The translations under genes were made by a program, and so were the position numbers. Below the pieces are notes generated by a model that did not search any database, was not told where the DNA came from, and worked only from the letters and a program-made list of their open reading frames with translations. From a virus: a stretch of DNA of 41,417 nt. Positions 16,718 to 32,378 of the stretch are shown piece by piece. Location of the stretch: UHGV virus genome UHGV-0392655. The stretch is one strand, 5' to 3'. Position 1 is the stretch's first letter. Every line of letters starts with the position of its first letter.

Positions 16718-16749
16718 TCCCCAACAATCGCATGAGGGCGGACTTCCTT

Positions 16750-16782
16750 CAAGTTGGCGAGAATCAATGTTTCTATCCCTGC
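16750..16782 (-). promoter_or_regulatory. Conserved late-operon motif, copy 1. Coding-strand sense: GCAGGGATAGAAACATTGATTCTCGCCAACTTG.
   Basis: One of five copies. The CAACTTG end lies 33 nt upstream of the ATG at 16717. Confidence 0.55.
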
Positions 16783-16788
16783 CGCATC

Positions 16789-18402
16789 TCAATAAAGCAT
16801 CCCCTCCAGAGCGTCGGGGCGTCTGTGAGGCCTCTTCACCTTCTCCGGCTCCCCGGCATGACCGGACACCAGGCCGCGGCTCACCGCCTCGGCAAACGTC
16901 CGGGCGGCATCCGCGCCATGGGAACAGGCGTCATGAAGCGGCATCTCCCGCACGCACCCGTTGGACCCCGGCGGCAAACTGCGGTAATACTCCAGGGACC
17001 CCACCCCGGAAACATACTTCTGCCCGTCAATCTCCGGGCGCCGGTTGCAGCGCTCATGAAACACGCAAAAACGCAGCATATTCCGCAGCGCGTTAATCCC
17101 GGTCCAGATATCGGACGTGCGCGGCACAATCGCCGTGCGGAACCCGGCCCGCTGCAGCACGGACTCAAAAGACGTCTTGGAAAAATCCCTTCTGGCCGCA
17201 TCGTGCGGCAGCAGGTGCAGGGCGACAGGCCCGAACTCCCTCTCCCTCATCCGGATCTGCCCCACGTAATAATCAACCGCCTGATTATTCCCGGCAATAT
17301 AATCCAGCGCGTAATACCTGCCGCCCACCACCTGCCAAAGCCAAATCGCCATAAAATCGCTCAACCCCAAATCCCAGGAAGCATAAATCGGAGCCACGTC
17401 ATCCACTTCAAACTCGGCGGCGATCCTCCCCTCGGCCCGCAGGGCAGAAATCCACCTCCCGTAAATAGCCCCCTCCACGGACGTCTGCAAAGCCTCCTCC
17501 GGCACGGTGGGAAACTCCTGCTTCACCTCCGCCCCGTTAATCCTGTACTGGGTAGCGTACCACGCCTTCTGCCCCTCGGACAACTCAATCCCGTAACGCC
17601 TCTTCAAATCGGAAAAATAATCCCGCAAAAAATCATCCAGCCTCGGCTCCACCCCCTCCAGGCAATACTCCCGATGCTGGATCCAGGAAAAAAAGAAAAA
17701 CCTGAAATCCAGGCTGGAAAGAGGCTTGCCCACCATCTCCATAGCCTGCTCCATCAACTGGTAAGCCAGCCCGGCCTTCCCTCCCTCGTGGGTGGACTCC
17801 ATCACCACCACGCAGCTCTTGCCAACGGTATTCAACGCGCCCGTGCGGATCTTCCTGGCCCTGGCCGGATCATGCAGCGCCGTATAGGAAAACTCGGAAA
17901 TATGCAAAAACTGGAGAGTGGACCCGCGCAAATTAACCCCTACATCAACAGACCCGTTCGTGGACCAGGCCATGCGGGTGGCCCTCTTCTCCACCACAGC
18001 GCACCCCTCCTTAACCATCCTCCCCAAAGCAGCCAGCGCCCGGTCCTCCATCGTCGGATTCTCCGGCAAAAAATCCAAATGCTCATAAGCAAAAGCAATC
18101 TTGCGCAGCTTGGCCTCCCCGTCCTCCAGCGTCTTATCAATAATCCCGCAATGCTGATTCCTCCCAAACAGGCAAAGATCCAGCATATAAATGGCGCAAA
18201 ACGTAGAAATCCCCAGCTGGCGCACCTTCAAAATCGTATTGCGGAACCAAAGCCCGTGAAAAAGCTCCTCCTGGGCCCAATTCGGGCGGAAGCGCACCAT
18301 CCGGCCCTCCTTATCCTCAATCCAATACAAATGATTAAGGCGCCACCACCTGTCGGCCAGCAGCTCCTTCCAATCCGGTCTCGTCTTCGCAGGCTCCGTC
18401 AT
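16789..18402 (-). CDS. terL: Terminase large subunit.
   Basis: 537 aa. N-terminal ATPase region with 'RFRPNWAQEELFHGLWFRNTILKVRQLGISTF' and a C-terminal nuclease-like region, typical of TerL. Confidence 0.8.
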   Translation of the reverse strand: MTEPAKTRPDWKELLADRWWRLNHLYWIEDKEGRMVRFRPNWAQEELFHGLWFRNTILKVRQLGISTFCAIYMLDLCLFGRNQHCGIIDKTLEDGEAKLRKIAFAYEHLDFLPENPTMEDRALAALGRMVKEGCAVVEKRATRMAWSTNGSVDVGVNLRGSTLQFLHISEFSYTALHDPARARKIRTGALNTVGKSCVVVMESTHEGGKAGLAYQLMEQAMEMVGKPLSSLDFRFFFFSWIQHREYCLEGVEPRLDDFLRDYFSDLKRRYGIELSEGQKAWYATQYRINGAEVKQEFPTVPEEALQTSVEGAIYGRWISALRAEGRIAAEFEVDDVAPIYASWDLGLSDFMAIWLWQVVGGRYYALDYIAGNNQAVDYYVGQIRMREREFGPVALHLLPHDAARRDFSKTSFESVLQRAGFRTAIVPRTSDIWTGINALRNMLRFCVFHERCNRRPEIDGQKYVSGVGSLEYYRSLPPGSNGCVREMPLHDACSHGADAARTFAEAVSRGLVSGHAGEPEKVKRPHRRPDALEGMLY

Positions 18403-21400
18403 TGCGTATCAACAGCTAAAAACTCAAGGGGGCGGTCCCCGGAAACCCGGATGCCAAACCGCACATCCCGCCTCCACATGGCGGACGGAAGCACCTCATG
18501 CCATCCCCGTTCCATCGTCCTGGTCTTGCTCAACCGGTCCCAGGCGCTCCCGTCATTGGACACCTCAATACCGGCCGGGGCCGTATCGGAAGCAAAAAAC
18601 ACGCGCACGGCCGCGGCCTGTCTATCCCTGCCCAGGGACTCCGCCACATCCAGCGCATTCGTCACCACCGTGGACGTAAAATCCCACGCGCCGGCATCCA
18701 CAAACGGGCCGTCCGGATCAAACACCTCCACAAACCGCCCATCCTCACGCTCCACGGACACAAACAGCAAATCCTCCCCGGTCCCATTGGGCAGCACCAC
18801 GGCGTTGGACATCCGCCCCTCCGTCCTGTGACGGTGCCAGGCATGCACCTGGTGCATGCTATTATAAGTCATCAGCGCCAGCGTGCCGTCCGCCAGGGTC
18901 ATCACCGCCCGCGGGTGGGGCTTCCTCATAAAATCCCCGGAAGTAACCCCGCCGCCGCCGGCCAGCACATGATCGGCGAACACCGTCAAATCGCGGGACA
19001 CAAACCCGTCGCTCTCATAATCATACCCGTACTGATACACCCGTCCGCCGCCCCTCTCCACATACAGCACCTTATCGGTCGCCATCAGGGCCGGCACATC
19101 GGAAGACCCCACAAACCCGTGGCTGTCCGCCCGCGCATTGGAGTAAGTCATCACCCCCTGGCCCCCGGACACCGTCCACTCCGCGTCCGCCGTCCCCAGC
19201 AGCAGCCGGGAACTCTGCGCCATCAGCCAGCAAATCCTGTTCTGCGTTGTGGTGCTCAACGTCAAAGCCAGCGCGGAATCATCCTGCTTCCCCACCTCGA
19301 AACTGTTGAGGTCATCCGTCTTGCTCAACCACACCGTCTGCGGCTGGGCCTGCGTAGCGGCCAACACCAGGCGCTGCTGAAACACATCCACCAGGGAAGG
19401 AAACCCGTACACCCCCCGGAACGCCGCGAAACTCCACATCAACGACTCCCCGGACGGAGGAACCCCCTCCGGAACCGCGGAAACATTATCCCAAAGAGAA
19501 TACTCCGCGGAAGCCGTCACCTCGGCCGCCTCCGCCTCCATCCACGCCGTGCAGGCCGGCACCTCCACCCGCACACGGGAACGCAACTTCACATTACTCT
19601 CCGTCCATGCCTGTACGCTAATCAAAAACAAACCATCCTCCGGCACCGTGTAAGACGCCTCCTCCATCGCGCTGAACACCTCCGCATACCTGCCGCCGGA
19701 CATCCCCTTGATCGTGGAAGGCAGCACAATCTCCATCCCCGACTGGACAGACCTCCATCCCTGCAGCGTCACCACCGTACCCGCCGTTAAAAAACGGCTC
19801 ATGAAAATGCTGGCCGCATTCCCGTTCCCGCTCTTATTGACGGACTCCGCCGCCTGCGTCCACTCCAGGCGCACCATGCTCCCGGCGCCCACATCATCCG
19901 TCGTCAGCCCCCTGGGCCTCACCGTCAGCGTCCGCCCCTCTCTGGACAACGGACACTCCCCGGAAAAACGCTCCCCGTCAACCACCAGGGCATTCACTGC
20001 GGGCAACCCGGCATACACGCAATAATCATACGCATCGCCCTCCAAAGGCAGCGTCAACTTCAACACGTCGCTGGTGGACAACCCCGCCGCGGACATCTCC
20101 TCCCGGACTTCCGGCTTCACCACCCCGGAAGCCACCCCGGAAAACTCCGCCTGACACTCGGCAGCCTCCAGCGTACTGCCCTTATCATGAACAACCTTAA
20201 CCGTATAAAACCCGCTGGCCGGCGCGGTATACACATCCGCACTGCTCTTCCAAACCGTCGTAAACTGCGCATCCCCGGCGGACCAGGCCGTCAACCGAAC
20301 CACCGCGCCCTCACCCATTCCGGTCAGGGCGTTCCCCGTCACATTCACGTCAAACCTCGCCCCGGCTGGCCAAAAATCCGTCCTCATCCCGCGGGCGTCC
20401 AGCGTCACGGCCCCGGATTTGCGCGGCTCCGTCCAGGCAAACCGGACCGTCTTCCCGTCCTCCAGCGCATCCGCGGGCAGCCCCCTGGGCGTCACGTCAA
20501 CACCGTCGGGCCCCAGCGTCAGCACGGCGGACGCCCCCGGAACCTCCACCTCATCCACCCACACGCGGCTTGCCCGGATGGAAGACGCCGTACAGGTCAG
20601 GAAATGCCGCAACGCCGGCGTGGCGGGAACCGAAAACCGCTGTATGGAAGCAGGCCGGGAGCCGGAACGCAGCCGCAGCACCACATCCTTCTTATAAGCA
20701 TCCACCACCAGCTTATTCCCGCAGCTGTCCGGAGGAAACCCCTGGCTGGGATCGGAACCGCTGGAAAGCCGGGACTCATACAACATCAGGCGCAGGTAGC
20801 ACTCCTCTTCGCTCTCGTCCCCGGTAATCTGCAAATTGGAAGCCGAGCCAACCATGGAAGTGGACGTCCCCAGCAGCTGCCAATCCTCATCGGGAAAACG
20901 CCGCTCCACGGCATACGTGCCGTACCACTCCTTACTGCACCAAAACTTCCATGTCCCCTTGCAGGTAATCGTATTGGAATGGCAAATCACGCCCTTATGA
21001 AAATGCTCCGGATAATCCGCCGGAGACGTCAGGCCGTCCACAAAATCCGCCGCCCCGTTAAAATCCCTGTCGCACGTCCACCAGGACCAATAACTCCCCT
21101 CATTGAGGCAGAGCTTTTTCCCAGCCGTGAAAGCGCTGGCCGCCGTAAACGCCCCGGCAACCACCCAGCCCTGGCGAATCACGGCCCCCGTGCTGAACCC
21201 GGTCTGCTGGGGCACCGTCACCTGGACGCGCATCACATCCCCCTCATTCACCGCCGCGTCCGCATCGGACGCATGCTCCCCGAAAGACACCCTGTAACAC
21301 CCCTCATCCAGCGTCAGGCGCACCGGAAAATCCCGGAACTCCTCATACCGCCAGGGGCGGGCCTTAAACTCATAGGGCGCCAGGGAAAACATGCCCTCGT

Positions 21401-21788
21401 CATCCCGTCTCAGCACCATCAGCTCATGCGTAGGGCAGGCCAGAAACAACATGCTGTTCACCTGCTTGTGGCGCAGGGCGGCAACGTCAGCCGCCGTCCA
21501 CACGGAAGGCAGGGAGGCAACCACATCCCCCTCAACGGACAACACGCGCAGCAGAGAAGGAGCCACCTCCACAAGAAAACGGTCATTGGTGGAATAAACA
21601 TAGGGAAGAAGAAGGGAACCCTCCAAAGCGGCGGCCACCCTCCTCATCCCGTGCCGCCGGGAAACTCCCCCCGTTTGGGAAACATCCACATTCTCCAGCA
21701 CGGACGCCCCGCGATGATAAACATCCAGATCCGGACGCGCGGCAATCCCGGGCGAAAGCTCGCCTCCATTAAAGGAAATCCTCTTCAT
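18399..21788 (-). CDS. Tail tubular protein B-like (T7 gp12-like nozzle) large tail protein.
   Basis: N-terminus 'ISFNGGELSPGIAARPDLDVYHRGASVLENVDVSQTGGVSRR' resembles T7 gp12 'NLKGGISQQPDILRYPDQGSRQVNGWSSETEGLQKR'. About 1129 aa. Position is after the capsid gene. Confidence 0.5.
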   Translation of the reverse strand: MKRISFNGGELSPGIAARPDLDVYHRGASVLENVDVSQTGGVSRRHGMRRVAAALEGSLLLPYVYSTNDRFLVEVAPSLLRVLSVEGDVVASLPSVWTAADVAALRHKQVNSMLFLACPTHELMVLRRDDEGMFSLAPYEFKARPWRYEEFRDFPVRLTLDEGCYRVSFGEHASDADAAVNEGDVMRVQVTVPQQTGFSTGAVIRQGWVVAGAFTAASAFTAGKKLCLNEGSYWSWWTCDRDFNGAADFVDGLTSPADYPEHFHKGVICHSNTITCKGTWKFWCSKEWYGTYAVERRFPDEDWQLLGTSTSMVGSASNLQITGDESEEECYLRLMLYESRLSSGSDPSQGFPPDSCGNKLVVDAYKKDVVLRLRSGSRPASIQRFSVPATPALRHFLTCTASSIRASRVWVDEVEVPGASAVLTLGPDGVDVTPRGLPADALEDGKTVRFAWTEPRKSGAVTLDARGMRTDFWPAGARFDVNVTGNALTGMGEGAVVRLTAWSAGDAQFTTVWKSSADVYTAPASGFYTVKVVHDKGSTLEAAECQAEFSGVASGVVKPEVREEMSAAGLSTSDVLKLTLPLEGDAYDYCVYAGLPAVNALVVDGERFSGECPLSREGRTLTVRPRGLTTDDVGAGSMVRLEWTQAAESVNKSGNGNAASIFMSRFLTAGTVVTLQGWRSVQSGMEIVLPSTIKGMSGGRYAEVFSAMEEASYTVPEDGLFLISVQAWTESNVKLRSRVRVEVPACTAWMEAEAAEVTASAEYSLWDNVSAVPEGVPPSGESLMWSFAAFRGVYGFPSLVDVFQQRLVLAATQAQPQTVWLSKTDDLNSFEVGKQDDSALALTLSTTTQNRICWLMAQSSRLLLGTADAEWTVSGGQGVMTYSNARADSHGFVGSSDVPALMATDKVLYVERGGGRVYQYGYDYESDGFVSRDLTVFADHVLAGGGGVTSGDFMRKPHPRAVMTLADGTLALMTYNSMHQVHAWHRHRTEGRMSNAVVLPNGTGEDLLFVSVEREDGRFVEVFDPDGPFVDAGAWDFTSTVVTNALDVAESLGRDRQAAAVRVFFASDTAPAGIEVSNDGSAWDRLSKTRTMERGWHEVLPSAMWRRDVRFGIRVSGDRPLEFLAVDTQ

Positions 21789-21823
21789 TTCCCCTGAACA
21801 TAACCCAGGGCGTTCAACCGGGG

Positions 21824-21855
21824 CAAGTTGGCGAAAATCAACGTTTCTTCTCCGG
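21824..21855 (-). promoter_or_regulatory. Conserved late-operon motif, copy 2.
   Basis: The complement of CAAGTTGGCGAAAATCAACGTTTCTTCTCCGG sits 35 nt upstream of the ATG at 21788. Confidence 0.5.
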
Positions 21856-21917
21856 AACAGCAAAAAGGGCCGCCTCCATGCAGAGACGGCCCTATGGACA
21901 AACCGACGGGAAAAAAA

Positions 21918-22373
21918 CTACTGAATACCGTAAGCAATAGCAAAAACAAGCTTCTTGCCGGCGGTCACCGCCGGTGTTCCGCCCACCTTCGCGTAAACCA
22001 TCGTCACAGCATCCACCGGCCCCGTGGAAACCGCCTGGGAACCCTTCGTCAACTGATAAGTCCCGGCGGCGGTCACGGTCAGGGAGGCGGAAAAAGCATC
22101 CGCCGCCTCCTTCGTTCCCACGGTCAGCTGCAGCGTCCCCACGCCTTCGGAAACGACATGGGAAAGCTGCGGCAGCACGCGGGCTCCACAGGGAACATTG
22201 CAAATGGCGATCAGGTCATCGGCCGCCAGGGACGCGGGCATGATGAACTCCGCCGTAGCCACATGGACCCCGGCGCCGGTATGGATGGCCGCCAGCTGCG
22301 GCACCGTCGGCAGGCCGGTCCGATCCGCAAGGGCAAGCTGTTTCTCTGCAATAACTGTTTGATACGTTGCCAT
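21918..22373 (-). CDS. Virion structural protein (about 150 aa, beta-rich). Possible gp11-like adaptor or minor capsid protein.
   Basis: Start at MATYQTV. Position is between the major capsid and tail tubular genes. Confidence 0.35.
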   Translation of the reverse strand: MATYQTVIAEKQLALADRTGLPTVPQLAAIHTGAGVHVATAEFIMPASLAADDLIAICNVPCGARVLPQLSHVVSEGVGTLQLTVGTKEAADAFSASLTVTAAGTYQLTKGSQAVSTGPVDAVTMVYAKVGGTPAVTAGKKLVFAIAYGIQ

Positions 22374-22405
22374 AATCAATAAAATAAAATGTGTTGTTAT
22401 CCTAA

Positions 22406-23374
22406 TTAAGAAAGCTGCTTGCACTTAATCTGCACAAACGCCTCTTCGCGCATGCGGGTGGCTCCCATAATCGTCTTAAGGCCGATCTGGATCGTGTCCT
22501 CCTTATCGGAGCGCTTCTCCACCGTCACCTTATTCTGCTTCCAAGAACCGAAATACAGGGAATTCTTCATCCACATCGGGCAAATGATATCCCCGTCCTC
22601 GTCAAGCGGCAAATTGGGAGCAATGATAAACTGAATCCCCATAATCGGATCCAGGGCGCCGTTGCTCTTGCGCAGGGAGGAAAAACCGAAATCCGCCTTC
22701 TGCAGACGCTCGTCATTAATCAGGGCCTCGCGCATGCGGGGAGTAATCGCGCAGCACACCTGGTCGCCGTAGGCATTGGAAGCATCATCCAGAATCCCGT
22801 TCTCCTGCAGCAGCGTAATACCACGGTTCAGCTTCTCAATCGTCAGCGGGCAATCCTTAGCCGTGCCGCCGGTATAATCGACTGCCACCACATTAGCCTC
22901 CAGCAATTCCAGCTGTTCCATGCCGTCATTGCCGGCAAACGCCGTCCCGAAAATGCCGCCCTTGGACGGCACATATACCCCTCCCTGCTTCTTCAGGCCG
23001 AACAAAACATCGTCCATCTTGCGGGCAGCCGCGTACTTCAGCGCGTTAATCGTCTGCGTCACGGGAGCGTCCAGGCCGTGCAGGAAAATATCGTCATCCT
23101 CATCATAGCCCAAATGCTTCGAAAAACTAACCGGCAGCATCCGGCGCTTGAAATAATCAAGCTCGTCCAACACAATATCCTGCATCCGGCCCTGCTTCTC
23201 ATTCAGCTCCGTAGTACCGACAAAACTGAACTCCTGGAGCTTGCCCGTCAAACCGGACTTGATCACGCAGAAACGTTCCAGGCGGGACGTAGCCTGCTGA
23301 ACCTGCTCCTGCCACTGGTTATCGTAAGTCTCCTGATAAAGATCGGAGATGGGTAAAGTGTAATTACTTGGCAT
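22406..23374 (-). CDS. Major capsid protein.
   Basis: About 322 aa ORF directly downstream of the scaffold/int region, with its own copy of the late motif. Size and position match T7 gp10. Start taken at ATG 23374 (MPSNYTL), not the upstream GTG at 23401. Confidence 0.5.
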   Translation of the reverse strand: MPSNYTLPISDLYQETYDNQWQEQVQQATSRLERFCVIKSGLTGKLQEFSFVGTTELNEKQGRMQDIVLDELDYFKRRMLPVSFSKHLGYDEDDDIFLHGLDAPVTQTINALKYAAARKMDDVLFGLKKQGGVYVPSKGGIFGTAFAGNDGMEQLELLEANVVAVDYTGGTAKDCPLTIEKLNRGITLLQENGILDDASNAYGDQVCCAITPRMREALINDERLQKADFGFSSLRKSNGALDPIMGIQFIIAPNLPLDEDGDIICPMWMKNSLYFGSWKQNKVTVEKRSDKEDTIQIGLKTIMGATRMREEAFVQIKCKQLS

Positions 23375-23406
23375 GCTTCCATCAGGGGACAGAAACCGCA
23401 CATTTG

Positions 23407-23439
23407 CAAGTTGCCGAGTGTCAATTCAGTTGCAGAATC
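23407..23439 (-). promoter_or_regulatory. Conserved late-operon motif, copy 3 (more divergent).
   Basis: The complement of CAAGTTGCCGAGTGTCAATTCAG... sits 33 nt upstream of the capsid ATG at 23374. Confidence 0.45.
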
Positions 23440-23473
23440 TCCAATTCGGCATCTTGTCTCTGTCATACAGACG

Positions 23474-23658
23474 TTACAGAAGTGTTACAAATTGAAGCAA
23501 ATTATTTATAGAAATAAACTTAACACCCACTCTCTCCGCCAAAAGTTTCTGTAAGAAAACCTACGTAAACCTTGATAACGTAGGGGATTATGAATAAGGT
23601 TCGTGTAGGTTTTCTTACGCGAACCTTATTACAAAACCATTACAGAAGATATTACAGG
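23474..23658. other. attP-like or regulatory repeat region immediately upstream of int. It holds direct TTACAGAAG-N2-TTACA repeats at 23474 and 23640 flanking a perfect 14-bp inverted repeat GTAAGAAAACCTAC/GTAGGTTTTCTTAC (23551..23564 and 23605..23618) with nested shorter palindromes.
   Basis: All repeats directly seen in the sequence. Confidence 0.4.
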
Positions 23659-23659
23659 T

Positions 23660-24799
23660 ATGAGCAAACCTTTTTACAAGGGGCGTCTGTCCATCAACAA
23701 GGAAAAATCCTCGCCCTACTGGATGGTGACCTTTCAGGGGCCGGACGGCAAGATGAAGCGCCGTTCCACGAAAGTTCCTGTGAATGGCGGAGAATTTGAA
23801 GGAGACCGGATCACGGCCAAACTGGCGGAACGTATCGCCTACCAGCGGGGCGTGCAGATAGCCTGCGCGGAAGCGGAAGAATACCAGGTGCACAACAATG
23901 TTTCCGTGCGTGCCTGGTGTGACGGATTTGTTGGGCGCAAGGCGGCTCTTGTCTCCGAACAGACGGCCTACAATGCCAGAACCGCCTGCAAGCATTTTTA
24001 CGAGTATCTGGGAGCGCGGGCGAACGCCCCGCTTCGCCTGATCACCAAGGCGGACATCAAGGGCTTTGTGGCGGCTCGCCGCGAACTGGTGCGGCAAAAG
24101 ACTGTGTACAAGGATATGTCCGTTCTTTCCCAGGCATTCGCGGATGCCGTGGATTCAGAAGTAATTGACCGCAATCCGTGCGCCGGCGTTTCCATTCCCC
24201 CGGACCGTGCCGGGGAAAAGCTGCACAAGGAAGCCTTCACACTCGACGAGATCCGCTACATGATTGAGCATTTCCCGCCCCTGTGGAGTTCCGCGGTACG
24301 CTGCTCGTTTGAAACCTACGGCCAGCGGCTGGGGGATATTCTGCGCCTCAACTGGAATCAGTTTGACTGGGAACGCCGCATCGTGCGCTTTGACACGGGC
24401 AAAACGGGGCGCTGGATGGACCAGCCCATGAGAGAAGGCTTTTACCAATGGGCGCTTGCCCGCTGGAAGGAAGCGGGGGAACCGGCGGATGAACTACTTC
24501 ACGCGCCCCTGCTGGCCCTGGGGGATGGCGCGTCCTATCAATTCGGCCTCCTGTTGCGCACCCATGGCATCGGCGTGGTGCATGGAGCGGCCGGCGGCCG
24601 CAGAAGGAGGATGAACAGCAAGTCCTTCCACAGCATTCGGGCCACGGCGGCCACGTTGTTGCAGGCATCAGGCGTATCGCAGGGGCTGGCCATGGAGCTG
24701 GTGGGGCATGACTCTTCCGCCGTGCATAGCGTGTACATCCGCCCCTCCGTGGATCAGCTGCGCTCCGCTGCGGAATCCCTACCGGAACTTCTTCCTTAA
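23660..24799 (+). CDS. int: Tyrosine-type site-specific integrase.
   Basis: 379 aa with catalytic R (GQRLGDILRLNW), H-x-x-R (FHSIRAT) and H...Y (LVGHDSSAVHSVY) motifs. It is the only plus-strand gene in the core. Confidence 0.9.
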   Translation: MSKPFYKGRLSINKEKSSPYWMVTFQGPDGKMKRRSTKVPVNGGEFEGDRITAKLAERIAYQRGVQIACAEAEEYQVHNNVSVRAWCDGFVGRKAALVSEQTAYNARTACKHFYEYLGARANAPLRLITKADIKGFVAARRELVRQKTVYKDMSVLSQAFADAVDSEVIDRNPCAGVSIPPDRAGEKLHKEAFTLDEIRYMIEHFPPLWSSAVRCSFETYGQRLGDILRLNWNQFDWERRIVRFDTGKTGRWMDQPMREGFYQWALARWKEAGEPADELLHAPLLALGDGASYQFGLLLRTHGIGVVHGAAGGRRRRMNSKSFHSIRATAATLLQASGVSQGLAMELVGHDSSAVHSVYIRPSVDQLRSAAESLPELLP

Positions 24800-24836
24800 A
24801 AAAGCCCTGCTCCCAAAAAGGAAACAGGGCTTGCTG
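24797..24836. terminator. Bidirectional terminator-like hairpin between the convergent int and scaffold genes.
   Basis: Stem AGCCCTG...CAGGGCT preceded by AAAAAA on the plus strand, which reads as a U-tract on the minus strand. Confidence 0.45.
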
Positions 24837-24852
24837 GAAAAGCAATATCTGC

Positions 24853-25605
24853 TTACGCACCCATCAGTCGCATATACTTGGCCCTCACCTCGGCAAAACG
24901 CGGATGGTCGCAATCGTGGAATGCCGAATAATCCGGGTGTTCCGGATCGTGCATCATGCGCCGGGCTTCGCCGCGGGCCTGCTGTTCCTGCCGTCCGGGA
25001 GGCGCCGGAAGAGCCGGCTCGTCCAGAATCCGGCCTACTGCATCCAGAATCCTGTACATGGCCGGATGATCGGCAATGCCCATCTCATTAAACACGCTCT
25101 GGTCGATACCGGCCATGCGGCACAACCTCCCGGCCATTTGAACGGCGCGCATCTGGCGTGCGTCGCTGTCCCGGCCCCACTCTCCATCCAGCTGTCTCCA
25201 GGCCTCTTCCATGGCGGCATCCTGCGCCTGCTTCTGTTCGGTCGCTTTGGCCGCCAGACGCGCATCCATATCCTTGATAAACGCGGAAAGCCCCTCGACA
25301 GGAAGCCCGTGGGCCTTGCCGGTCTCGGTCAGCAACTGCTGCAGCGTCTCGTCTCCAGAAAACGTATCATCGAACGTCAACACGTAATCCCCCTGGGAAG
25401 GCGGATCTCCCTGCGGAGAACCCGGATCCGATGGGGGAGGAGGATCCGGCTGCTCATCATCCGCCGGAGTCGGCTCCGGTGCAGGATTAGCCAGGCTGGG
25501 ACGTCCGGAAGCGGAAGGGGCGGCGGAACCTCCTCCGCCACCACCTCCATTCTCCGGAGCCTCTTCAAAAAGAAACCGGTTATGGTACAACTTAAATAAA
25601 ATCAT
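24853..25605 (-). CDS. Putative scaffolding protein (acidic, Gly/Pro-rich N-terminus, helical C-terminus).
   Basis: Start at MILFKLYHN. Position is between portal and capsid, as for T7 gp9. Low-complexity GGGGGGG and PEPTPADDEQPDPPPP stretch. Confidence 0.4.
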   Translation of the reverse strand: MILFKLYHNRFLFEEAPENGGGGGGGSAAPSASGRPSLANPAPEPTPADDEQPDPPPPSDPGSPQGDPPSQGDYVLTFDDTFSGDETLQQLLTETGKAHGLPVEGLSAFIKDMDARLAAKATEQKQAQDAAMEEAWRQLDGEWGRDSDARQMRAVQMAGRLCRMAGIDQSVFNEMGIADHPAMYRILDAVGRILDEPALPAPPGRQEQQARGEARRMMHDPEHPDYSAFHDCDHPRFAEVRAKYMRLMGA

Positions 25606-25615
25606 GGTACTTCTT

Positions 25616-25867
25616 CTATATCTCTTCTTCTGGTTCGTAATGATTGCCCATGGCCGCTTCGATGAACAAAACCACCTCGCGGTAGGCGTCTCGACGCATA
25701 GCGTCAAGGGGGTCGTAAGAACCGGCCTTCCCCTGGAAACAGGGAAGATCGGTCTGGAAATGTCTCTTCAGCTCCTCCAGGACTTCCGGATTCCTGAATG
25801 CTTCCCGGAAAATCCTTCTGCGGCGCTTCATGTACTGTTCGTACTTATTGGTGGGGTCCGTCTTCAT
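25616..25867 (-). CDS. Hypothetical protein (83 aa).
   Basis: ORF with a 4-nt overlap with the portal stop. Confidence 0.35.
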   Translation of the reverse strand: MKTDPTNKYEQYMKRRRRIFREAFRNPEVLEELKRHFQTDLPCFQGKAGSYDPLDAMRRDAYREVVLFIEAAMGNHYEPEEEI

Positions 25868-27513
25868 GTCGTTTGTAAAGCCTGCTGGGCCTGGGCATTA
25901 TTCCTGTTAGCCACGGAGGACTGTTCGGCAATGGCTGCCTGTATGGCCGCTTCTTGCTGATTCTTCCTTTCAGTCTCCTTCTCCTTCACCTCATCCTCTG
26001 TCGCCTTGCACTCCATCGGGGCGCCCTTGGAATCGTAAATCAATTCCCCGGCCTTATTGAGATTCACAATATCCAGCAGCTCCGGTCGGCCGGTCATCTG
26101 CGACAAAGTGCCGATAGACTCAAGAGCCGTCATCAAGCCGTCCGTCTGTGTACGTGCAATCGCCTGGGCAATCTTGCCCATGAACTGAACCTGGGGGACG
26201 GCCAGGCGTGTAGGAGCGCCCCGCCGGTTGACCTCAAACACGCCCTGAACCGGCTCCGGAAGCTTCCCGGCGCGATACAACAGGGCCATAATACGCTGGC
26301 ACATCATCCTGAAATCGCTCACAAACAACGTAAAAGAAGGCGTAAACCCAAGCACCTTCTCGGCTTCCCGGGCCGCCACCTCCGTAGCCGTCATCTGGCG
26401 GTCGATGCGGGAAACGGTTTCCAGCATGGGAACGTAAAAAGCCTCTTCAATCTTGGCGTACAGGCCCCGCAGGTATTCCAGCCCGATATCATACTGCCCT
26501 TGTGTGCCCCATTCGCGCGGCAAGCCAAGTTCCGCCGCTTCCGGAGAAATGACGGTTTGGCCTCCGGCGCGCAAATCCACCTCCCCATACTGCTTTGCCA
26601 GCAGGAAAAGCCTCGGATAAGCCTTTGTCTGTCCCAGCGTGTAAAGAATCTTCTCCATGTCGATAGCCATGCGGATCGTGCGCCGCGCGAACCATGCCGG
26701 TCCCACCCCGTAGGGGCTGTCTCCCCAGCGCAGAAAGCGCGTCACCAGAAACGGAAATTCGAAAAAACCGCTCTCAAACACAATCTTCTTATCGTCCAAC
26801 GAAATAATGACGTCCTTCCACGCTCTCTTGCCAGGCGGCACATGGTCGGACAACAGCTTGCCCTGCGGGTTAGGCAGGACGCATTGCACAAACTCGAAAG
26901 AATCCGTATAGCGTCTCCTGGCATCCTTGAGCGCTCTCCGCACTTTTGGGCCCAGAGCCTCCTCCTTCCACTTCTGCGCCGCCTGGTGAGCCGTCAGCCG
27001 GAACCAGCGCACCAGCGTATCAACATCCCCTGACTCCGACTCCGCGATAGCGTAAGTTCCCGTGGGAATGTGCCGGAAAATCAGCTGCCTGTTAATATTC
27101 ATCTCGGCAAACATGCAGCCGGTTCCCGTCAGGCAGCGATCAAGGTAAACCTCATGAATCACTGAATAAAAATTGGAAACGGCAAGTTCCCGCTCCATCA
27201 CCTCCGTAACCTTGCTGTACCAATCATTCAAAGCCTGATTCCCATCCTTATTAAAACCTACCGGGCGCAAGGTAAACCAGCGCCTGTCCAAAGGCGTAAT
27301 ATAAGTCAAATGGGCGGATGCCAGCTTCTTCAGGCTGTTATTGGCGACGTCGCTATGCTCCAATCCGCCGCTGTGATCAGGTACGCGGTCGGGATAAGCG
27401 TTGCCCGTAGCCCTGGGCATGATAATACGGCGCATTTCATCCCAGCCGCCTTCAAAAGCGGCGCGTTCCGTGCGCAGATTATCTGCCAGGGAAATGTAAT
27501 CGCGTACCTCCAT
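25864..27513 (-). CDS. Portal (head-tail connector) protein.
   Basis: 549 aa. Size, position (before scaffold) and a Gln/Ala-rich C-terminal tail resemble podovirus portal proteins. Confidence 0.55.
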   Translation of the reverse strand: MEVRDYISLADNLRTERAAFEGGWDEMRRIIMPRATGNAYPDRVPDHSGGLEHSDVANNSLKKLASAHLTYITPLDRRWFTLRPVGFNKDGNQALNDWYSKVTEVMERELAVSNFYSVIHEVYLDRCLTGTGCMFAEMNINRQLIFRHIPTGTYAIAESESGDVDTLVRWFRLTAHQAAQKWKEEALGPKVRRALKDARRRYTDSFEFVQCVLPNPQGKLLSDHVPPGKRAWKDVIISLDDKKIVFESGFFEFPFLVTRFLRWGDSPYGVGPAWFARRTIRMAIDMEKILYTLGQTKAYPRLFLLAKQYGEVDLRAGGQTVISPEAAELGLPREWGTQGQYDIGLEYLRGLYAKIEEAFYVPMLETVSRIDRQMTATEVAAREAEKVLGFTPSFTLFVSDFRMMCQRIMALLYRAGKLPEPVQGVFEVNRRGAPTRLAVPQVQFMGKIAQAIARTQTDGLMTALESIGTLSQMTGRPELLDIVNLNKAGELIYDSKGAPMECKATEDEVKEKETERKNQQEAAIQAAIAEQSSVANRNNAQAQQALQTT

Positions 27514-27518
27514 GGCTG

Positions 27519-27749
27519 CTATCCCAGGGTTTTGCGCAACGTGGACAAACCGCCGGACAGATTCGGATTATTCACCGTATCGGACAGCTTCAACCTGCGC
27601 TTACTTTTGGTCTGAACATCCTCCGAAGCATCGGAAACAGACTTCTCCGTAGCCGTCGGATTCAGCGGCTCTTCTACTACCGGCGGAGCCGGAGCCTGTG
27701 TCACTTTAGGTTTGAAAATAGATCCCATAACAACTAATGATGAAAACAA
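27519..27749 (-). CDS. Hypothetical protein (76 aa).
   Basis: ORF lying between the lysozyme and portal genes. Confidence 0.3.
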   Translation of the reverse strand: MFSSLVVMGSIFKPKVTQAPAPPVVEEPLNPTATEKSVSDASEDVQTKSKRRLKLSDTVNNPNLSGGLSTLRKTLG

Positions 27750-28331
27750 CTAAACAAGCTCCTGCGCCACGCTGAACGCATCGTCGCAGCGGTTCAGCCA
27801 ACCCTTCCCGAACACGGGAAACTGCTTGCATGAGCGGTAAAACGCCTGACGCTTCTCCTGCAGGGCGATAAGGAACACCGCTTCACCCGTGGCGGCCAGC
27901 TGGTCCTGCAACTCCTGCCTGGTCCTGGGGCCGACAATCCCGTCCACCACAAGCCCGGCACCGTGAATATTCAGCGCACGTTGCAGGATCTTCCCGGTAT
28001 TCCTGCTCCCGGAATTGAAATAATGATCCCGCAGGATGAATTCAACGCCAGGAAAAGCGTCGGAACCCAGCCAGGAGCGCACGGCGGCGGTATTATCCAG
28101 GACATACTGGAGACAACCTTCCCAGGCCTCTTCACGCCTTCCGGCATCCATCAGGGCCTTCAATCTGTTAAACACGGCCGGTTCAATACCGTCGCAAATG
28201 CCGCAAATCTCCCACTTGCCGCCCTTGTCGGCGGCGGGAAGGCGGGAAACGCGCAGGGAATCTGGCCCGGTAACGCGGCTGTCTTCAAAGCGGAGGATAG
28301 CCGCAGCCATCTTTCTTTCTGTAGTATTCAT
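27750..28331 (-). CDS. Endolysin: GH108-family lysozyme with a C-terminal PG_binding_3 peptidoglycan-binding domain.
   Basis: 'AAILRFEDSR...ADKGGKWEICGI' resembles the GH108 N-terminal motif (IL.FEGG...DPGG.T..GI). The C-terminus 'LVVDGIVGPRTRQELQ' is a typical PG-binding motif. Confidence 0.65.
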   Translation of the reverse strand: MNTTERKMAAAILRFEDSRVTGPDSLRVSRLPAADKGGKWEICGICDGIEPAVFNRLKALMDAGRREEAWEGCLQYVLDNTAAVRSWLGSDAFPGVEFILRDHYFNSGSRNTGKILQRALNIHGAGLVVDGIVGPRTRQELQDQLAATGEAVFLIALQEKRQAFYRSCKQFPVFGKGWLNRCDDAFSVAQELV

Positions 28332-28516
28332 TCGTTCAGATTGTCGATAAGTTGCACAAGCCGCTTGCCTTCCACGGTGTAGCAATGACACTTGGCATGC
28401 AAATGCCACTCATTGAATTGAGCCAGGAAAAAAGCGGCGTCTCTTTCGGTAAGAAAAATTTTCATCCACTGCTCCTTTCCGGGTTCGTCCACAATGAGTA
28501 TGTACAGGGTAGGCAT
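28328..28516 (-). CDS. Hypothetical protein (62 aa) with no TM segment.
   Basis: ORF with an ATGA overlap with the lysozyme start. Confidence 0.3.
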   Translation of the reverse strand: MPTLYILIVDEPGKEQWMKIFLTERDAAFFLAQFNEWHLHAKCHCYTVEGKRLVQLIDNLNE

Positions 28517-28726
28517 GCGGAAACTATTGATTATTAACTAAAGGGAACTTGTAAGAAAAACTTTACAGTTGGTGTTATCGTCCGCACCGAGAAAAGTACA
28601 AGAGAATGGCCAGTGCAGTGAGCCATACCCCGATACCATATCCAGGTTCCCCTATACACATGAGGGTAAATCCCAAAACTGTTGCTGATAAAATGGCCGC
28701 TAACGACAGAAAGAATTGTTCTTCAT

Positions 28727-29011
28727 TCACTTTTCCAGCTTCCTTTCTATGTTTTCGATGCGCACGGCAAGCAGTTGAATCGCCTTGGCCGTCTCCACCT
28801 GGGCCTGCGTCTGCATGGTCATCAGATCACAAAGGCGGTCATTGTGGTGGCTGACCACCTCCCCGATGTACCAGCATGCCCCGCCGCATATCGTCAGCGA
28901 CATCAGGACGCAGGCAAACACGGGGGAAGCCTTGGCAAAATCCAGGAAACGCGCCGGTACTTCGGAGAGCTTACACATGGCCTTATTTCTTGGAAGGTAC
29001 GATTTGAACAA
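28727..29011 (-). CDS. Small membrane protein of the lysis cluster (single TM plus coiled coil; holin or i-spanin-like).
   Basis: 'PVFACVLMSLTICGGACWYIG' TM segment followed by a heptad-like C-terminal region. Confidence 0.4.
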   Translation of the reverse strand: MFKSYLPRNKAMCKLSEVPARFLDFAKASPVFACVLMSLTICGGACWYIGEVVSHHNDRLCDLMTMQTQAQVETAKAIQLLAVRIENIERKLEK

Positions 29012-29306
29012 CGGGAGGAACGTCCGTAACAGGCTGGGCCTGGGAATAGGAGATATGCCCCGGCTCCAGCACCAGGCAGGAACCGTCCTTGCATACCACC
29101 GTCTTTTTCGGCGTCACGTCCACGGAATGGCCGCAGCCACCCAGCAGAGCGGAAGCCGCATAGGCAGCACCTGCCAGGACTACCCACAAAAGGCGTTCCC
29201 ACCACTTCAGGCCGGTTTTAGTTTTGCTTTTTTCGTAGGCATCTTTCATGCCCTGCTTCCCCGCCTCAAGGGCGGCCTGCTTTTGCTCGTCACTTAATTT
29301 ACTCAT
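28983..29306 (-). CDS. Membrane/lipoprotein of the lysis cluster (108 aa; holin or o-spanin-like).
   Basis: Start at MSKLSDEQ. Lys-rich N-terminus, then hydrophobic 'LLWVVLAGAAYAASALLGGC' ending in a lipobox-like LGGC. Confidence 0.35.
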   Translation of the reverse strand: MSKLSDEQKQAALEAGKQGMKDAYEKSKTKTGLKWWERLLWVVLAGAAYAASALLGGCGHSVDVTPKKTVVCKDGSCLVLEPGHISYSQAQPVTDVPPVVQIVPSKK

Positions 29307-29715
29307 GGTTTTGCTTTGTGAAGTATTTGAAAAAATCCACGGCGGCAGGGTCGGTAACAATGAACTCCGGGTAATCACGGGAAGTGAACACCCTCCGCCC
29401 GCCCTGCGGATTGACAGCCTCAACGGTCAGCACCACGGCAAAAACGTATTCGCTACGCTCATTCGCGACATCATACGTCATAGTAATACCTAACCGCGCC
29501 CACACCTGCACCGCCTGCCAGTCCTCACCCAATCCCACCAGCGCAGCAACTACGGACTCCATTGCCGGAGCCTGTTCCGCTGGTATCTCGTCCGCTGTGT
29601 AGCGGTCTGTCCGGGTGTAACCGCCCTTGTCCTGATAAATGGCCGTCAGGGTGAATTCTCCCCACTCGCCGGGCCGGGGAAACTGTATCTGTATCTCTGA
29701 ATTATTCATGCTCAA
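29299..29715 (-). CDS. Hypothetical protein (138 aa), possibly a tail-fiber-associated or assembly protein.
   Basis: ORF immediately downstream of the tail fiber gene with a 4-nt overlap. Confidence 0.3.
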   Translation of the reverse strand: MSMNNSEIQIQFPRPGEWGEFTLTAIYQDKGGYTRTDRYTADEIPAEQAPAMESVVAALVGLGEDWQAVQVWARLGITMTYDVANERSEYVFAVVLTVEAVNPQGGRRVFTSRDYPEFIVTDPAAVDFFKYFTKQNHE

Positions 29716-31760
29716 TCTTCGGTAGTCGTTTCGGCTTCCGGATCAACAAAATCCTCCACCGCCTCGGAGACAATGATATTGCTCTCCATGGAGGAAAACC
29801 CGTAATATGCCGGATTGACGTTATTGCAATGCAAGTGCATCGTCGCAGGAAGGAACGCTCCGGCCAACGCCCAGCTGTTGGCATTCTCAATATCAAGATA
29901 ATATCCGGAAAAGGGATAAATATTCTCAAAGCAATGGACTCCCCTCACCGTGGCGATCTTGACGCAGCCGCGGGTGGAATTCCCGCCATGCAGCAGCCAC
30001 AACGCTCCCCTGTCTTCGGTATCATATCCTCCGTCCTGGTATTGCTCGTAAACCACCGCGTACACGCAGACGGGATAACCGTTATTGGAAGACGTCTCCG
30101 GCGCGAGGGCCTGCGTCGTCTTCATCTTCCATTTCTGCTCGGCATTGGAATAATAAATCTCCCGGACACGAATATGATACCCTCCCGCGTCCGCGTCCCG
30201 GACATGATCAAACGTAATATCGATAATCTCCCCAATCCTGTAGCCGCCAGCCGCCTGATCCGGCACCAGCGTAAACGCGTCCCTGTCCCTTCCCATGCGC
30301 ACGACCGTTGTCATCTGGCCGAACCTGGCCGTGAATTTCGTGCTGACAGCCGGAAGGCGCACCGGAGCCACCCACCCCCGGATGCTGGAATAATTGTGCA
30401 TGGGCCTCGCGTTGGTCACGAGGCCGCATTTCACGGTAAAAGAGGAATTGGGAGGGACATTGAAATAAAGGGAATTGGGTTCCTTGTCTGTTTTGAAAAC
30501 CGTCCCGTTGGAAGATGAGCAATTCGCCGGGAGCGGATAACACCTGACGGAAAAAGCGTCCGTCACGGCGGCCAACCCGGCGGCGTACAGGCGGTTGACG
30601 CCGGATTCATTGGTCGGCGCCCCCACAGCCAGCGGGACATTGATCCCGCCATTGGCGTTAATAGCCCCGGCCGCCGTCAGACCTCCGGCCAGCGTCATGT
30701 TGCCTGCATCATCTACTTGAGGTATGGCCTCAAGGGCCTGCTGGGCTTCTGTGGCGGAGTTGGCCGCGCTGGTGGCAGAGGTCGCGGCATTCGTCGCGGC
30801 CGTATTGATGCGCCCCTCCGCCTGATCTATAGCCTCTTTAGCGGTTTCGGCGCGCTGGACAAGGGGCGTGATCGTCCCTTGCGCTTCCTCCTCCGCCTCC
30901 TGAACGGCGGCAACGGCATCCGCCTGCGCGCTGGCTATATTCTGCTGCGCGGTCTGTGAGGCACGACCTACGGCCAGCACAGAAGCCGCTTGCTTGTCCT
31001 GCACAGCAGTAACAGCCTCATTCCTGGCTTCAACAATTTTCTTCTCCCCGTCGCTGACCGTTTCCGGCCAGGTGGCGGCCAGCGACTCCACAGCCGTTTT
31101 AGCGTCATGGGCACTCTTGGCGTCACGGTCCGCGTTGGTTGCGGACGTACCGGCGGCGGCCTCGGAAGCGGCGGCGGCCCTTTTGGAGGCCAAAGCGGAA
31201 CCTGCATAGCCTTCCGCCTCTTCGGCCCGTGCAGCAGCGGTGGCTGCCGCGTCCGTTGCCGTCTTGGCTGCCTGGCTCGCCGTTTCCGCATTGGTGGAGG
31301 ATGTGTTGGCATTCTGTTGCGCCTGTTGGGCCGCGATAATGGAGGCCGTGTTGGAAAGCCACTGGGCCTTGATCGTCTTACTTGCCTCAACAGGTATCGT
31401 AATACCCATTGCAGGAATATCGTACACCGTGGACGACTCAACAGGAGCCACAGAATCCACGGCCCCAATATAACCGGAAAACAGCCTCAAATCCTCTCCG
31501 GACTCATCCTGTGCATGAATGGCATACGGCCAGCGGCCAACAGGCAGGGCAGGAAAAGTAAGCTCCAAACAATGTTCTTGCTCGCCGTGTTCAATAACAA
31601 CGGGCAAGTCTCCCTGTTCCGTCTTCACCACACCGGTGAAAGAAACTCCTGTTAACGGGAACGGAGATTGCGTCACATCCTCGAACAAAAGCCAGCCTAT
31701 GCGCTTGGCATAGCCTGCCGTCGTGGACAAATGGCGCGTCATTCCCAGAAAATTTAACAT
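29712..31760 (-). CDS. Tail fiber protein.
   Basis: 682 aa. Globular N-terminal attachment region, a long Ala/Thr/Gln-rich coiled-coil shaft (AAQQAQQNANTSSTNAETASQAAKTATDAAATAAARAEEAEG...) and a globular C-terminal receptor-binding-like domain. Confidence 0.6.
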   Translation of the reverse strand: MLNFLGMTRHLSTTAGYAKRIGWLLFEDVTQSPFPLTGVSFTGVVKTEQGDLPVVIEHGEQEHCLELTFPALPVGRWPYAIHAQDESGEDLRLFSGYIGAVDSVAPVESSTVYDIPAMGITIPVEASKTIKAQWLSNTASIIAAQQAQQNANTSSTNAETASQAAKTATDAAATAAARAEEAEGYAGSALASKRAAAASEAAAGTSATNADRDAKSAHDAKTAVESLAATWPETVSDGEKKIVEARNEAVTAVQDKQAASVLAVGRASQTAQQNIASAQADAVAAVQEAEEEAQGTITPLVQRAETAKEAIDQAEGRINTAATNAATSATSAANSATEAQQALEAIPQVDDAGNMTLAGGLTAAGAINANGGINVPLAVGAPTNESGVNRLYAAGLAAVTDAFSVRCYPLPANCSSSNGTVFKTDKEPNSLYFNVPPNSSFTVKCGLVTNARPMHNYSSIRGWVAPVRLPAVSTKFTARFGQMTTVVRMGRDRDAFTLVPDQAAGGYRIGEIIDITFDHVRDADAGGYHIRVREIYYSNAEQKWKMKTTQALAPETSSNNGYPVCVYAVVYEQYQDGGYDTEDRGALWLLHGGNSTRGCVKIATVRGVHCFENIYPFSGYYLDIENANSWALAGAFLPATMHLHCNNVNPAYYGFSSMESNIIVSEAVEDFVDPEAETTTED

Positions 31761-31793
31761 GGCTCAATCATGAGCCACAAAACACGGGAAATG

Positions 31794-31826
31794 CAAGTTG
31801 GCGAGAATCAATGTTTTTATCCCTGC
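31794..31826 (-). promoter_or_regulatory. Conserved late-operon motif, copy 4.
   Basis: The complement of CAAGTTGGCGAGAATCAATGTTTTTATCCCTGC sits 34 nt upstream of the tail fiber ATG at 31760. It is nearly identical to copy 1. Confidence 0.55.
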
Positions 31827-32308
31827 TTCACGGGAGGCTCAAAAGGCAGGGAGGACAGCAGAGTTATAAAATTCTCTCCTGCATCCACTTCCATCTTCTG
31901 AGGAGTGTATGCGCCATCCATCTTGTTAAGCTCGGCAATAGCGGCGATTTTTGAGGGCATCTTAAATTTCGCTCCGGTTTCATCCATGGAAACCTCCTGA
32001 CAGAGATCGGATGCGCTATCAACATTGCCGATGGGAGTTGTCACTACGCGGGACAACCATTCCATGCGCTGCTGCCTGGTCAGCACAGCAGACTTATCCA
32101 GTTGCTTATTCAATTCGTCAATCATTCGCAAAACAACATCATCTTTGGACAACCTATAAGCCGCCTTGTTTGCCGCATCATTACTTAAATCCTTGCGTTT
32201 GTACGCTTTGCGATAAGCGTCGGCTTTGGACATTTTAACCTCCACCAGGAGCCGCGCAAACTCCTTCTTCTTCTCTGTGACCTTGCTTGTGCTTTCCTTT
32301 CTGCCCAT
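31817..32308 (-). CDS. terS: Terminase small subunit (Terminase_2-like).
   Basis: 'KKKEFARLLVEVKMSKADAYRKAYKRKDLSNDAANKAAYRLSKDDVVLRMIDE' matches the N-terminal HTH signature of small terminase subunits. Confidence 0.55.
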   Translation of the reverse strand: MGRKESTSKVTEKKKEFARLLVEVKMSKADAYRKAYKRKDLSNDAANKAAYRLSKDDVVLRMIDELNKQLDKSAVLTRQQRMEWLSRVVTTPIGNVDSASDLCQEVSMDETGAKFKMPSKIAAIAELNKMDGAYTPQKMEVDAGENFITLLSSLPFEPPVKQG

Positions 32309-32341
32309 ACCAATATTTTACCCTCCTGGTTTTCAGCACGT

Positions 32342-32376
32342 CAATTTGGTGAGAATCAATACTTCTTGCCCGGAAC
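32342..32376 (-). promoter_or_regulatory. Conserved late-operon motif, copy 5.
   Basis: The complement of CAATTTGGTGAGAATCAATACTTCTTGCCCGGAAC sits 34 nt upstream of the terS ATG at 32308. It shares the CTTCT..CCGGAAC tail with copy 2. Confidence 0.5.
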
Positions 32377-32378
32377 AA

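Follow-up and report, generated by a model that had tools for sequence, protein, structure and literature searches.

A conserved box shared by five predicted late promoters in a temperate Akkermansia phage

The window analysed here, virus genome UHGV-0392655 at its full length of 41,417 nucleotides, is the complete circular 41.4-kb genome of a temperate, podovirus-like Akkermansia phage. The initial annotation had described in it five copies of a conserved element of about 33 bp, each placed at a fixed distance upstream of a late gene, and had read them as a phage-specific late promoter or activator-binding site. We find that the five elements are very probably late-promoter elements of some sort. 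We lean, on the sequence analyses reported below, towards a fuller model in which they would be five late promoters, each made of a box bound by a phage activator (candidate, a 93-amino-acid (aa) protein) and of a core promoter of the host sigma70 type, from which leaderless mRNAs would be produced. No description of regulation in this phage group was found in the literature.

All five copies were recovered where they had been reported, all on the minus strand (m1 to m5, Table 1). Compared to the 18-mer TTGATTCTCGCCAACTTG, the cores of m1 to m5 have 0, 1, 3, 0 and 2 mismatches, respectively. The number of copies with at most 3 mismatches expected by chance is 0.02, none of 100 dinucleotide shuffles reached five, and no further box within 3 mismatches is present in the window outside the five late sites. 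A looser core pattern yielded a single extra match, on the plus strand, which was poor and was taken as chance. Measured from the final G of the box, the distances to the ATG are 32, 35, 32, 33 and 33 nt for m1 to m5, in agreement with the 33-35 nt first given. The two types of head that had been noticed are real, GCAGGGATA[AG]AAAC being shared by copies 1 and 4, and GTTCCGG... by copies 2 and 5. The proposed 23-mer consensus, in contrast, is matched within 3 mismatches by copies 1, 2 and 4 alone, copies 3 and 5 being more diverged than it implied. Copy 5 reads GTTCCGGGCAAGAA, one base off the consensus of the initial annotation. As for the genes that follow, the labels of terS, of the capsid and tail protein genes, and of the 181-aa gene (which matches a PHROG tail family) were supported, but the 682-aa protein called a tail fiber has no family match.

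When all variants of the element were aligned on the ATG, a single layout emerged: head and box, TTGnnn, 17-18 nt, a hexamer of the form nAnnnT, 6 nt (8-9 at m2), and the ATG. The TTG that terminates the box is, as read from the sequence, the start of a sigma70-type −35 hexamer, a feature that had been overlooked. The claim that the element is not a generic host promoter is thus half right: the box is a late signal of this phage group, but it merges into a host-type core promoter. Each cassette of about 70 bp would therefore contain an asymmetric box of about 30 bp, GGnAAgAAnnn-[T/G]TGAywCTCGsCAAC, followed by a core promoter with a −35 TTGnnn whose TTG is the box end, a spacer of 17-18 nt, and a weak-to-good −10 of the form nAnnnT. 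Requiring A2 and T6 in the −10 and a spacing of 16-18 bp, four of the five sites qualify as sigma70 promoters (m1, m2, m4 and m5). We estimate the chance probability of such a fit at 4 of 5 sites, the TTG being fixed, at about 1e-3. Cassette m5 is the top sigma70-like match of the 16-33 kb region (10 of 12 positions). The whole genome was also scanned, on both strands, for the arrangement TTGnnn/16-18/nAnnnT/5-8/ATG in front of open reading frames (ORFs) of at least 40 aa. Among the 13 matches were m1, m2, m4, m5 and the cI-like repressor gene (TTGCGC-17-CATAAT-6-ATG at 41042). With nATnnT at −12..−7 and TTG at −35/−36, m1 and m4 are the only matches among 897 minus-strand ATGs.

Table 1. Positions of the promoter cassettes, genes and other features of the window
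Feature	Position	Strand	Details
Exonuclease, RusA, methyltransferases, replication initiator, DnaC-like loader		minus	First in transcription order; Pfam/PHROGs
93-aa MarR-type winged-helix protein	32379-32660	minus	Ends the early/replication operon
Cassette m5, upstream of terS	32306..32377	minus	Head and box 32342-32377 (18-mer 32342-32359); −35 TTGACG 32339-32344; 18-nt spacer; −10 TAAAAT 32315-32320; 6 nt; ATG 32306-32308
terS	31817-32308	minus	After the 93-aa gene; Pfam/PHROGs
Cassette m4, upstream of the 682-aa gene	31758..31829	minus	18-mer box 31794-31811; head overlaps terS stop codon; −35 TTGCAT 31791-31796; 18-nt spacer; −10 CATGAT 31767-31772; 6 nt; ATG 31758-31760
Inverted-repeat region at m4	31758-31779		Relatives with such regions (m3, m4 or m1): L100-L111, L149-L172
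682-aa protein	29712-31760	minus	After terS; no Pfam or PHROG match
Endolysin, T7-type portal, protease/scaffold-like protein			After the 682-aa gene in transcription order; Pfam/PHROGs
Tyrosine integrase	23660-24799	plus	Pfam Phage_integrase 4e-10; divergent from capsid gene
att core	about 23520-23543		Between integrase and capsid gene; shared core TTGGCGGAGAGAGTGGGTGTTAAG
Cassette m3, upstream of the major capsid gene	23372..23442	minus	18-mer box TTGACACTCGGCAACTTG 23407-23424; −35 TTGCAA 23404-23409; 17-nt spacer; weak −10 CCTGAT 23381-23386; 6 nt; ATG 23372-23374
Inverted-repeat region at m3	23375-23406		
Major capsid gene, then 168-aa ORF	capsid ATG at 23374	minus	Pfam/PHROGs
Intrinsic terminator	21866..21893	minus	12-bp stem and TTTTT; directly precedes m2; end of the capsid transcription unit
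Cassette m2, upstream of the 1129-aa tail gene	21786..21859	minus	18-mer box 21824-21841; −35 TTGCCC 21821-21826; 18-nt spacer; −10 TATGTT 21797-21802; 8 nt; ATG 21786-21788
1129-aa tail protein	ATG 21786-21788	minus	Pfam/PHROGs
terL	16789-18402	minus	After the 1129-aa tail gene
Cassette m1, upstream of the 181-aa tail gene	16715..16785	minus	18-mer box 16750-16767; head overlaps terL stop codon; −35 TTGAAG 16747-16752; 17-nt spacer; −10 GATTGT 16724-16729; 6 nt; ATG 16715-16717
181-aa tail protein	ATG 16715-16717	minus	PHROG tail family match
866-aa glucosaminidase-domain protein		minus	Downstream of the 181-aa tail gene
3306-aa polyvalent protein	2584-12504	minus	ART-PolyVal (ADP-ribosyltransferase), LPD3, weak metallopeptidase-like match
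cI/LexA-like repressor, 253 aa	41007-41417 joined to 1-386, ATG 41042	plus	Helix-turn-helix and S24 peptidase

This geometry implies that transcription would begin with the A of the ATG, or 1-2 nt earlier, and the predicted mRNAs would thus be leaderless or nearly so. The constant distance between box and ATG would then follow from the geometry of a sigma70 promoter whose start lies at or next to the ATG. All five late genes begin with ATG, and in relatives no start codon of the ORF comes before this ATG. Purine- or G-rich stretches are found 0-2 nt before the five late ATGs; in the phage genes that have a clear Shine-Dalgarno sequence, the spacing is 4-8 nt. With a start at the ATG, the 18-mer would be centred at −41.5/−42.5, and the whole box would extend from about −63 to −36/−33. 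The mRNA of cI-like repressor genes is the classic case of a leaderless phage messenger, and the cI-like promoter of this phage has the same leaderless geometry, embedded in operator-like repeats (ATGCACCAGAA / TTCTGGGTGCAT). In A. muciniphila itself, Cappable-seq revealed canonical −35 and −10 signals, with about 10% of the mapped start sites being leaderless (PMC4782308).

The initial annotation had proposed a motif search in related phages, and this search did detect the box at homologous positions, as variants including GTGACACTCGGCAACTTG, GTGATTCTCGCCAACTTG and TTGACACTCGGCAACTCG. An exact search of IMG/VR with the core returned 81 loci, mostly the same three sites in close relatives, plus about ten chance-like matches. 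Further lineages were obtained by searching with the capsid protein (91% identity) and with the 93-aa protein (69-91%). Within the 18-mer, positions T2, G3, A4, T8, C9, C12, A13, A14, T16 and G18 are invariant or nearly so. Conservation reaches 13-14 nt upstream of it (GG-n-AA-g-AA-nnn) and ends there, even beside unrelated upstream sequence. Relatives retain the box, the TTG, the −10 and the distance to the ATG, and their spacers are strongly diverged. The −10 of m2, for instance, appears as TATGTT, TATATT or TATAGT amid otherwise diverged spacers; at m5, the −35 is TTGACA, TTGACG or TCGACA and the −10 TAAAAT or TAAGAT, with about 10 of the 18 spacer positions changed. Two further arrangements within the box were tried as common features and rejected. 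The dyads AGAAACA-T-TGATTCT, seen in one lineage, and AGTGnCACT, seen in another, have different centres, and only one lineage clearly shows a direct repeat, sGsCAA-N14-sGsCAA (20 bp centre to centre).

Several unrelated sequences are found directly upstream of the m1 head among relatives, and in one of them, L089, an opposite-strand gene of 245 aa is inserted exactly in front of this head. The insertion, an AT-rich segment of about 1.1 kb with a moron-like ORF, occupies L089 positions 6882-8019, between terL and the m1 head (between window positions 16787 and 16779). One complete cassette, consisting of the box and agatttttccgg..ctcatgaaggaggcATG, is present upstream of the capsid gene in one lineage (L109, 9960-10012) and upstream of the homologue of the 682-aa gene in another (L149/L159), which means that entire cassettes move from one site to another. 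Neither the box nor the 93-aa protein is present in the Akkermansia phages Chantilly and DTMo-2021a, which have other modules in common with this one. No relatives were found when the contigs of GTDB genomes were scanned with the capsid protein, and a genome scan with the degenerate pattern KTGAYWCTCGSCAACTTG gave, among the matches listed, only single, chance-like ones in unrelated taxa.

The organisation of the genome offers reasons for having several promoters and one factor acting on them in trans: the attachment (att) site splits the virion genes, a terminator separates the capsid and tail units, and a leaderless gene needs its own start. The att site was placed between the integrase and the capsid gene on the basis of the homology to several proviral contigs, which breaks off at about 23543, at a shared core resembling the 3′ end of a tRNA; tRNA scans of the window and of the junction loci detected no tRNA. 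In the prophage, the integrase and att thus divide the virion genes into two blocks, one at either end. Whatever the details of the sequence, a promoter is obligatory at m3, given that the integrase upstream is divergent and that the att core, with host DNA beyond it in the prophage, is about 100 nt away. One is also required at m2, which comes directly after the best terminator-like site of the 16-33 kb region, and at m1 in L089, on account of the opposite-strand gene inserted upstream.

The winged-helix gene at 32379-32660, already put forward as a possible regulator, proved to encode the best candidate for an activator binding the box, judging from its position and its predicted fold. The 93-aa protein has a Pfam match to MarR_2 (5.5e-8, 33.3 bits for a cut-off of 27), and only MarR-type winged helix-turn-helix models match it in Pfam and PHROGs. 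Its AlphaFold2 model has a predicted local distance difference test score (pLDDT) of 86. The top Foldseek matches of this model are members of the MarR family, YusO, TM0710 and MarR (probability 1.0, query TM-score 0.76-0.79), of which it covers about half (target TM-score about 0.5). Families of known late activators (Mor/C, Ogr/Delta and RinA/ArpU) were matched neither by this protein nor by any other ORF in the Pfam and PHROGs scans. The gene overlaps the end of the DnaC-like gene (ATGA) and is co-oriented with the early replication operon; the protein is therefore probably made together with the early genes. In 62 of 62 related loci, the terS box comes at most 60 nt after the gene. The upstream neighbours of the gene in these loci belong to four unrelated groups, and its downstream neighbour to one. 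Homologue searches, with the single sequence as well as with a profile, returned only close relatives (at least 65% identity), meaning that the family is confined to this phage group. According to the model, the candidate activator, encoded at the end of the early operon and directly before the first box (m5), would be a diffusible protein that binds the boxes and helps the host RNA polymerase at core promoters that are mostly weak.

Several observations do not fit this model well. The capsid promoter should be the strongest, and it has the worst −10: CCTGAT, at m3, is without the key A2, and the CATGAA of relatives without the key T6. At m3, at m4, and at m1 in one lineage, the presumed −10 is in the loop of an inverted repeat that reaches the ATG. 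These repeats, of the type CCTCC...GGAGG / GGCTCA...TGAGCC, give RNA fold z-scores of −2.0 to −3.4 (−2.9 at m1 in the one lineage), and the m4 hairpin, GGCTCA-tgat-TGAGCC, overlaps both the −10 and the ATG (−3.4). At such sites the −10 could be conserved for the hairpin instead of for sigma binding; around the −10 of m2 and m5, no such inverted repeat is present. The hairpins may act on read-through transcripts or on the DNA, or may be incidental. In addition, m5 is close to consensus and might work without an activator. MarR proteins are for the most part repressors, which bind palindromes as dimers. An asymmetric box would be unusual for a MarR dimer, and no dyad in the box is consistent across lineages. 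The 93-aa protein does not have the architecture of a full-length MarR protein either, i.e. 140-150 aa, N- and C-terminal dimerisation helices and a palindromic operator. Finally, its predicted recognition helix, SNVSHRL, is nearly invariant, which leaves hardly any variation to compare with that of the box.

Among other ways of reading the five elements, we considered that the box might be by itself the complete promoter of a dedicated, unrecognised phage sigma factor or RNA polymerase, with a start a few nt after CAACTTG and a leader of about 25 nt. This seems unlikely to us. It would account for the almost continuous conservation of about 30 bp, would-be spacer included, which recalls T7-type or phage-sigma promoters, and the m3 and m4 hairpins that precede the ATG might then be leader structures. 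The −35 element of extracytoplasmic function (ECF) sigma factors is GGAACTT, which GsCAACTT resembles, and many early ORFs have no family match. But no conserved element is found 16-17 nt after the AAC, where an ECF −10 would be, and the nAnnnT that stays at a fixed 6-8 nt from the ATG amid diverging spacers is left unexplained, as is the GAC[AG] that comes after the TTG at m5. Such leaders would also have no Shine-Dalgarno sequence at the usual spacing. In line with the initial remark that no phage RNA polymerase is evident, no RNA polymerase or sigma domain was detected in the predicted ORFs with Pfam and/or PHROGs, nor in a PDB sequence search with the 3306-aa protein, which gave no match at all, even if highly divergent proteins could escape such scans. 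Known promoter classes were compared by eye and discarded: the GG that a sigma54 promoter (TGGCAC-N5-TTGC) would have 12 nt ahead of its GC is absent, the spacing is wrong for a Bacteroidetes −33/−7 promoter, and an ECF promoter (AAC-N16-17-CGT) would have a −10 at a distance where none is conserved. The 5′-terminal TTGATT/TTGACA of the box cannot be taken as a −35 either, as nothing resembling a −10 follows 16-18 nt downstream.

The box might instead be an operator. Bound over and next to the −35, the 93-aa MarR-like protein, or else a host protein, would then repress leaderless promoters that are constitutive by themselves, for timing or for silencing of the virion genes. The usual role of MarR-family proteins is repression, the box overlaps the first bases of the −35, and the core of m5 is close enough to consensus to be active alone. 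We nevertheless give this only a small chance. A protein encoded in the early replication operon would be made when the late genes should be switched on, and not in the lysogen; most of the box is upstream of the −35 (−63 to −36), leaving the −10 and the start site free; and four of the five core promoters are weak. Moreover, immunity is provided by the separate cI/LexA-like repressor, whose operators (the ATGCACCAGAA repeats) are unrelated to the box. Mosaic junctions do coincide with the boxes, as seen from the varied sequence upstream of the m1 head, the gene inserted in L089 and the complete cassette that occupies m3 in one lineage and m4 in a second. Yet it is very unlikely that the repeats are mainly recombination linkers at module boundaries, or some other signal in the DNA, and play no specific part in transcription: their strict orientation, the fixed distance to the ATG, the hexamer geometry and the order of terminator then box would be unexplained, and, where promoters are conserved, exchange between them is to be expected as a side effect. 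A terminator or a structured RNA, which the initial annotation had singled out beforehand as the outcome speaking against a promoter, can hardly be involved. Nothing specific favours it, although a true terminator adjoins m2; the 36-nt elements fold no better than shuffled sequences (z-scores of −1.05 to +0.18) and have no T-run, and no Rfam match was found in the window. We therefore retain the model of activated sigma70-type promoters.

Compared to described systems, this predicted arrangement has several partial counterparts. Class II activators bind at −41.5 in the case of CRP and FNR, and lambda cI acts in this way at PRM, the mRNA of which is leaderless. As in these sigma70 promoters, cII-dependent ones included, the 18-bp core is centred at −41.5/−42.5 and abuts or overlaps the −35; PRM is also leaderless like the predicted late mRNAs, and the cI-like gene of the present phage has the same geometry. 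The box differs in being asymmetric and in reaching to about −63, and the comparison does not imply homology to CRP, cI or cII. T4 middle promoters combine a MotA box in the −35 region with a sigma70 −10, and so share a phage-specific box together with a host-type −10; in our phage, however, the normal −35 TTG is retained, the box is further upstream, and no AsiA or MotA homologues were found. The stoperators of mycobacteriophage L5 are multiple asymmetric sites, in one orientation, in short intergenic gaps; they match the immunity operator and block elongation. The present boxes are likewise multiple, asymmetric, co-oriented and located in short intergenic gaps, but they are coupled to core promoter hexamers and absent from the immunity region, where different repeats are found.

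The logic appears closest to that of Mu C and RinA. Phage Mu has four dispersed late promoters (Plys, PI, PP and Pmom), each with a C-protein site just upstream of the −35 and used by the host RNA polymerase (PMC4461284). The likeness lies in dispersed late promoters with one shared activator site upstream of the −35, and in a small activator from an earlier operon; indeed, a single conserved site, upstream of the −35 or overlapping it, recurs in all five cassettes, as in systems of the Mu C/P2 Ogr type. The differences are that the candidate has a MarR fold and no Mor/C match, that the box is unrelated to the C site, that the transcripts are predicted to be leaderless, and that the host is verrucomicrobial. 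RinA, ArpU, LtrC and Alt are small activators that bind the terS promoter and whose genes immediately precede terS, where early genes give way to late ones (PMC3152322, PMC3753634). As in these phages of Gram-positive hosts, a gene for a small DNA-binding protein is found directly upstream of terS, and it is by this linkage that the protein is a candidate here. In contrast, they have one late operon with one promoter, compared to five promoters here, and differ by the lack of a family match and by the host phylum.

A bolder proposal, which we consider rather doubtful, is that of a late regulon expressed as leaderless mRNAs from five promoters and switched on by a minimal MarR-fold activator of 93 aa, acting at an asymmetric site near −42 to −50. 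This protein would represent a family of late activators unrelated to Mor/C, Ogr and RinA, and the whole would be the first defined phage regulatory circuit in Verrucomicrobia. Few genetic parts exist for A. muciniphila, a major commensal of the gut, and hardly any of its phage biology has been described. Should the model hold, the cassettes with their regulator would provide a compact, orthogonal activator-promoter pair for this species, show how virion production by common Akkermansia prophages is timed, and supply a defined set of leaderless genes on which leaderless translation could be studied in Verrucomicrobia. As activator-dependent late promoters of phages are already known as a kind, this would be useful more than surprising.

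The gene map drawn from Pfam and PHROGs has nearly all genes on the minus strand (Table 1). The cI/LexA-like gene continues from position 41417 into position 1, and the genome is therefore taken to be circular and complete. In Megablast, the window gave partial matches only, confined to two Akkermansia phages. The genes terS and terL, which the initial annotation had not reported as separated, are about 13 kb apart and belong to separate predicted transcription units. In the 3306-aa polyvalent protein, about 2700 residues have no detectable family. The N-terminal part of the 682-aa protein is conserved (about 88-99% identity in relatives), and its C-terminal half is variable, with 34-39% identity to proteins of Akkermansia phages Chantilly and DTMo-2021a; this pattern is consistent with a receptor-binding protein.

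The virion cluster is interrupted in its middle, after the scaffold/protease-like gene and before the capsid gene, by the integrase and the att core, and a perfect 14-bp inverted repeat, GTAAGAAAACCTAC...GTAGGTTTTCTTAC, is present between the integrase start and the att core. Among the 30 IMG/VR loci recovered with the capsid protein, 8 (L092-L099) start or end at residue 10 of the capsid, which corresponds to the capsid ATG; such ends are probably due to provirus trimming at a gene boundary beside the att site. Lastly, positions 1-2500 have a GC content of 44.5%, compared to about 56% elsewhere. This region, beside the repressor gene, carries small plus-strand ORFs with no confident family match (one sub-threshold YdaS_toxin) and one minus-strand ORF of 149 aa, and it may be a moron or accessory region.

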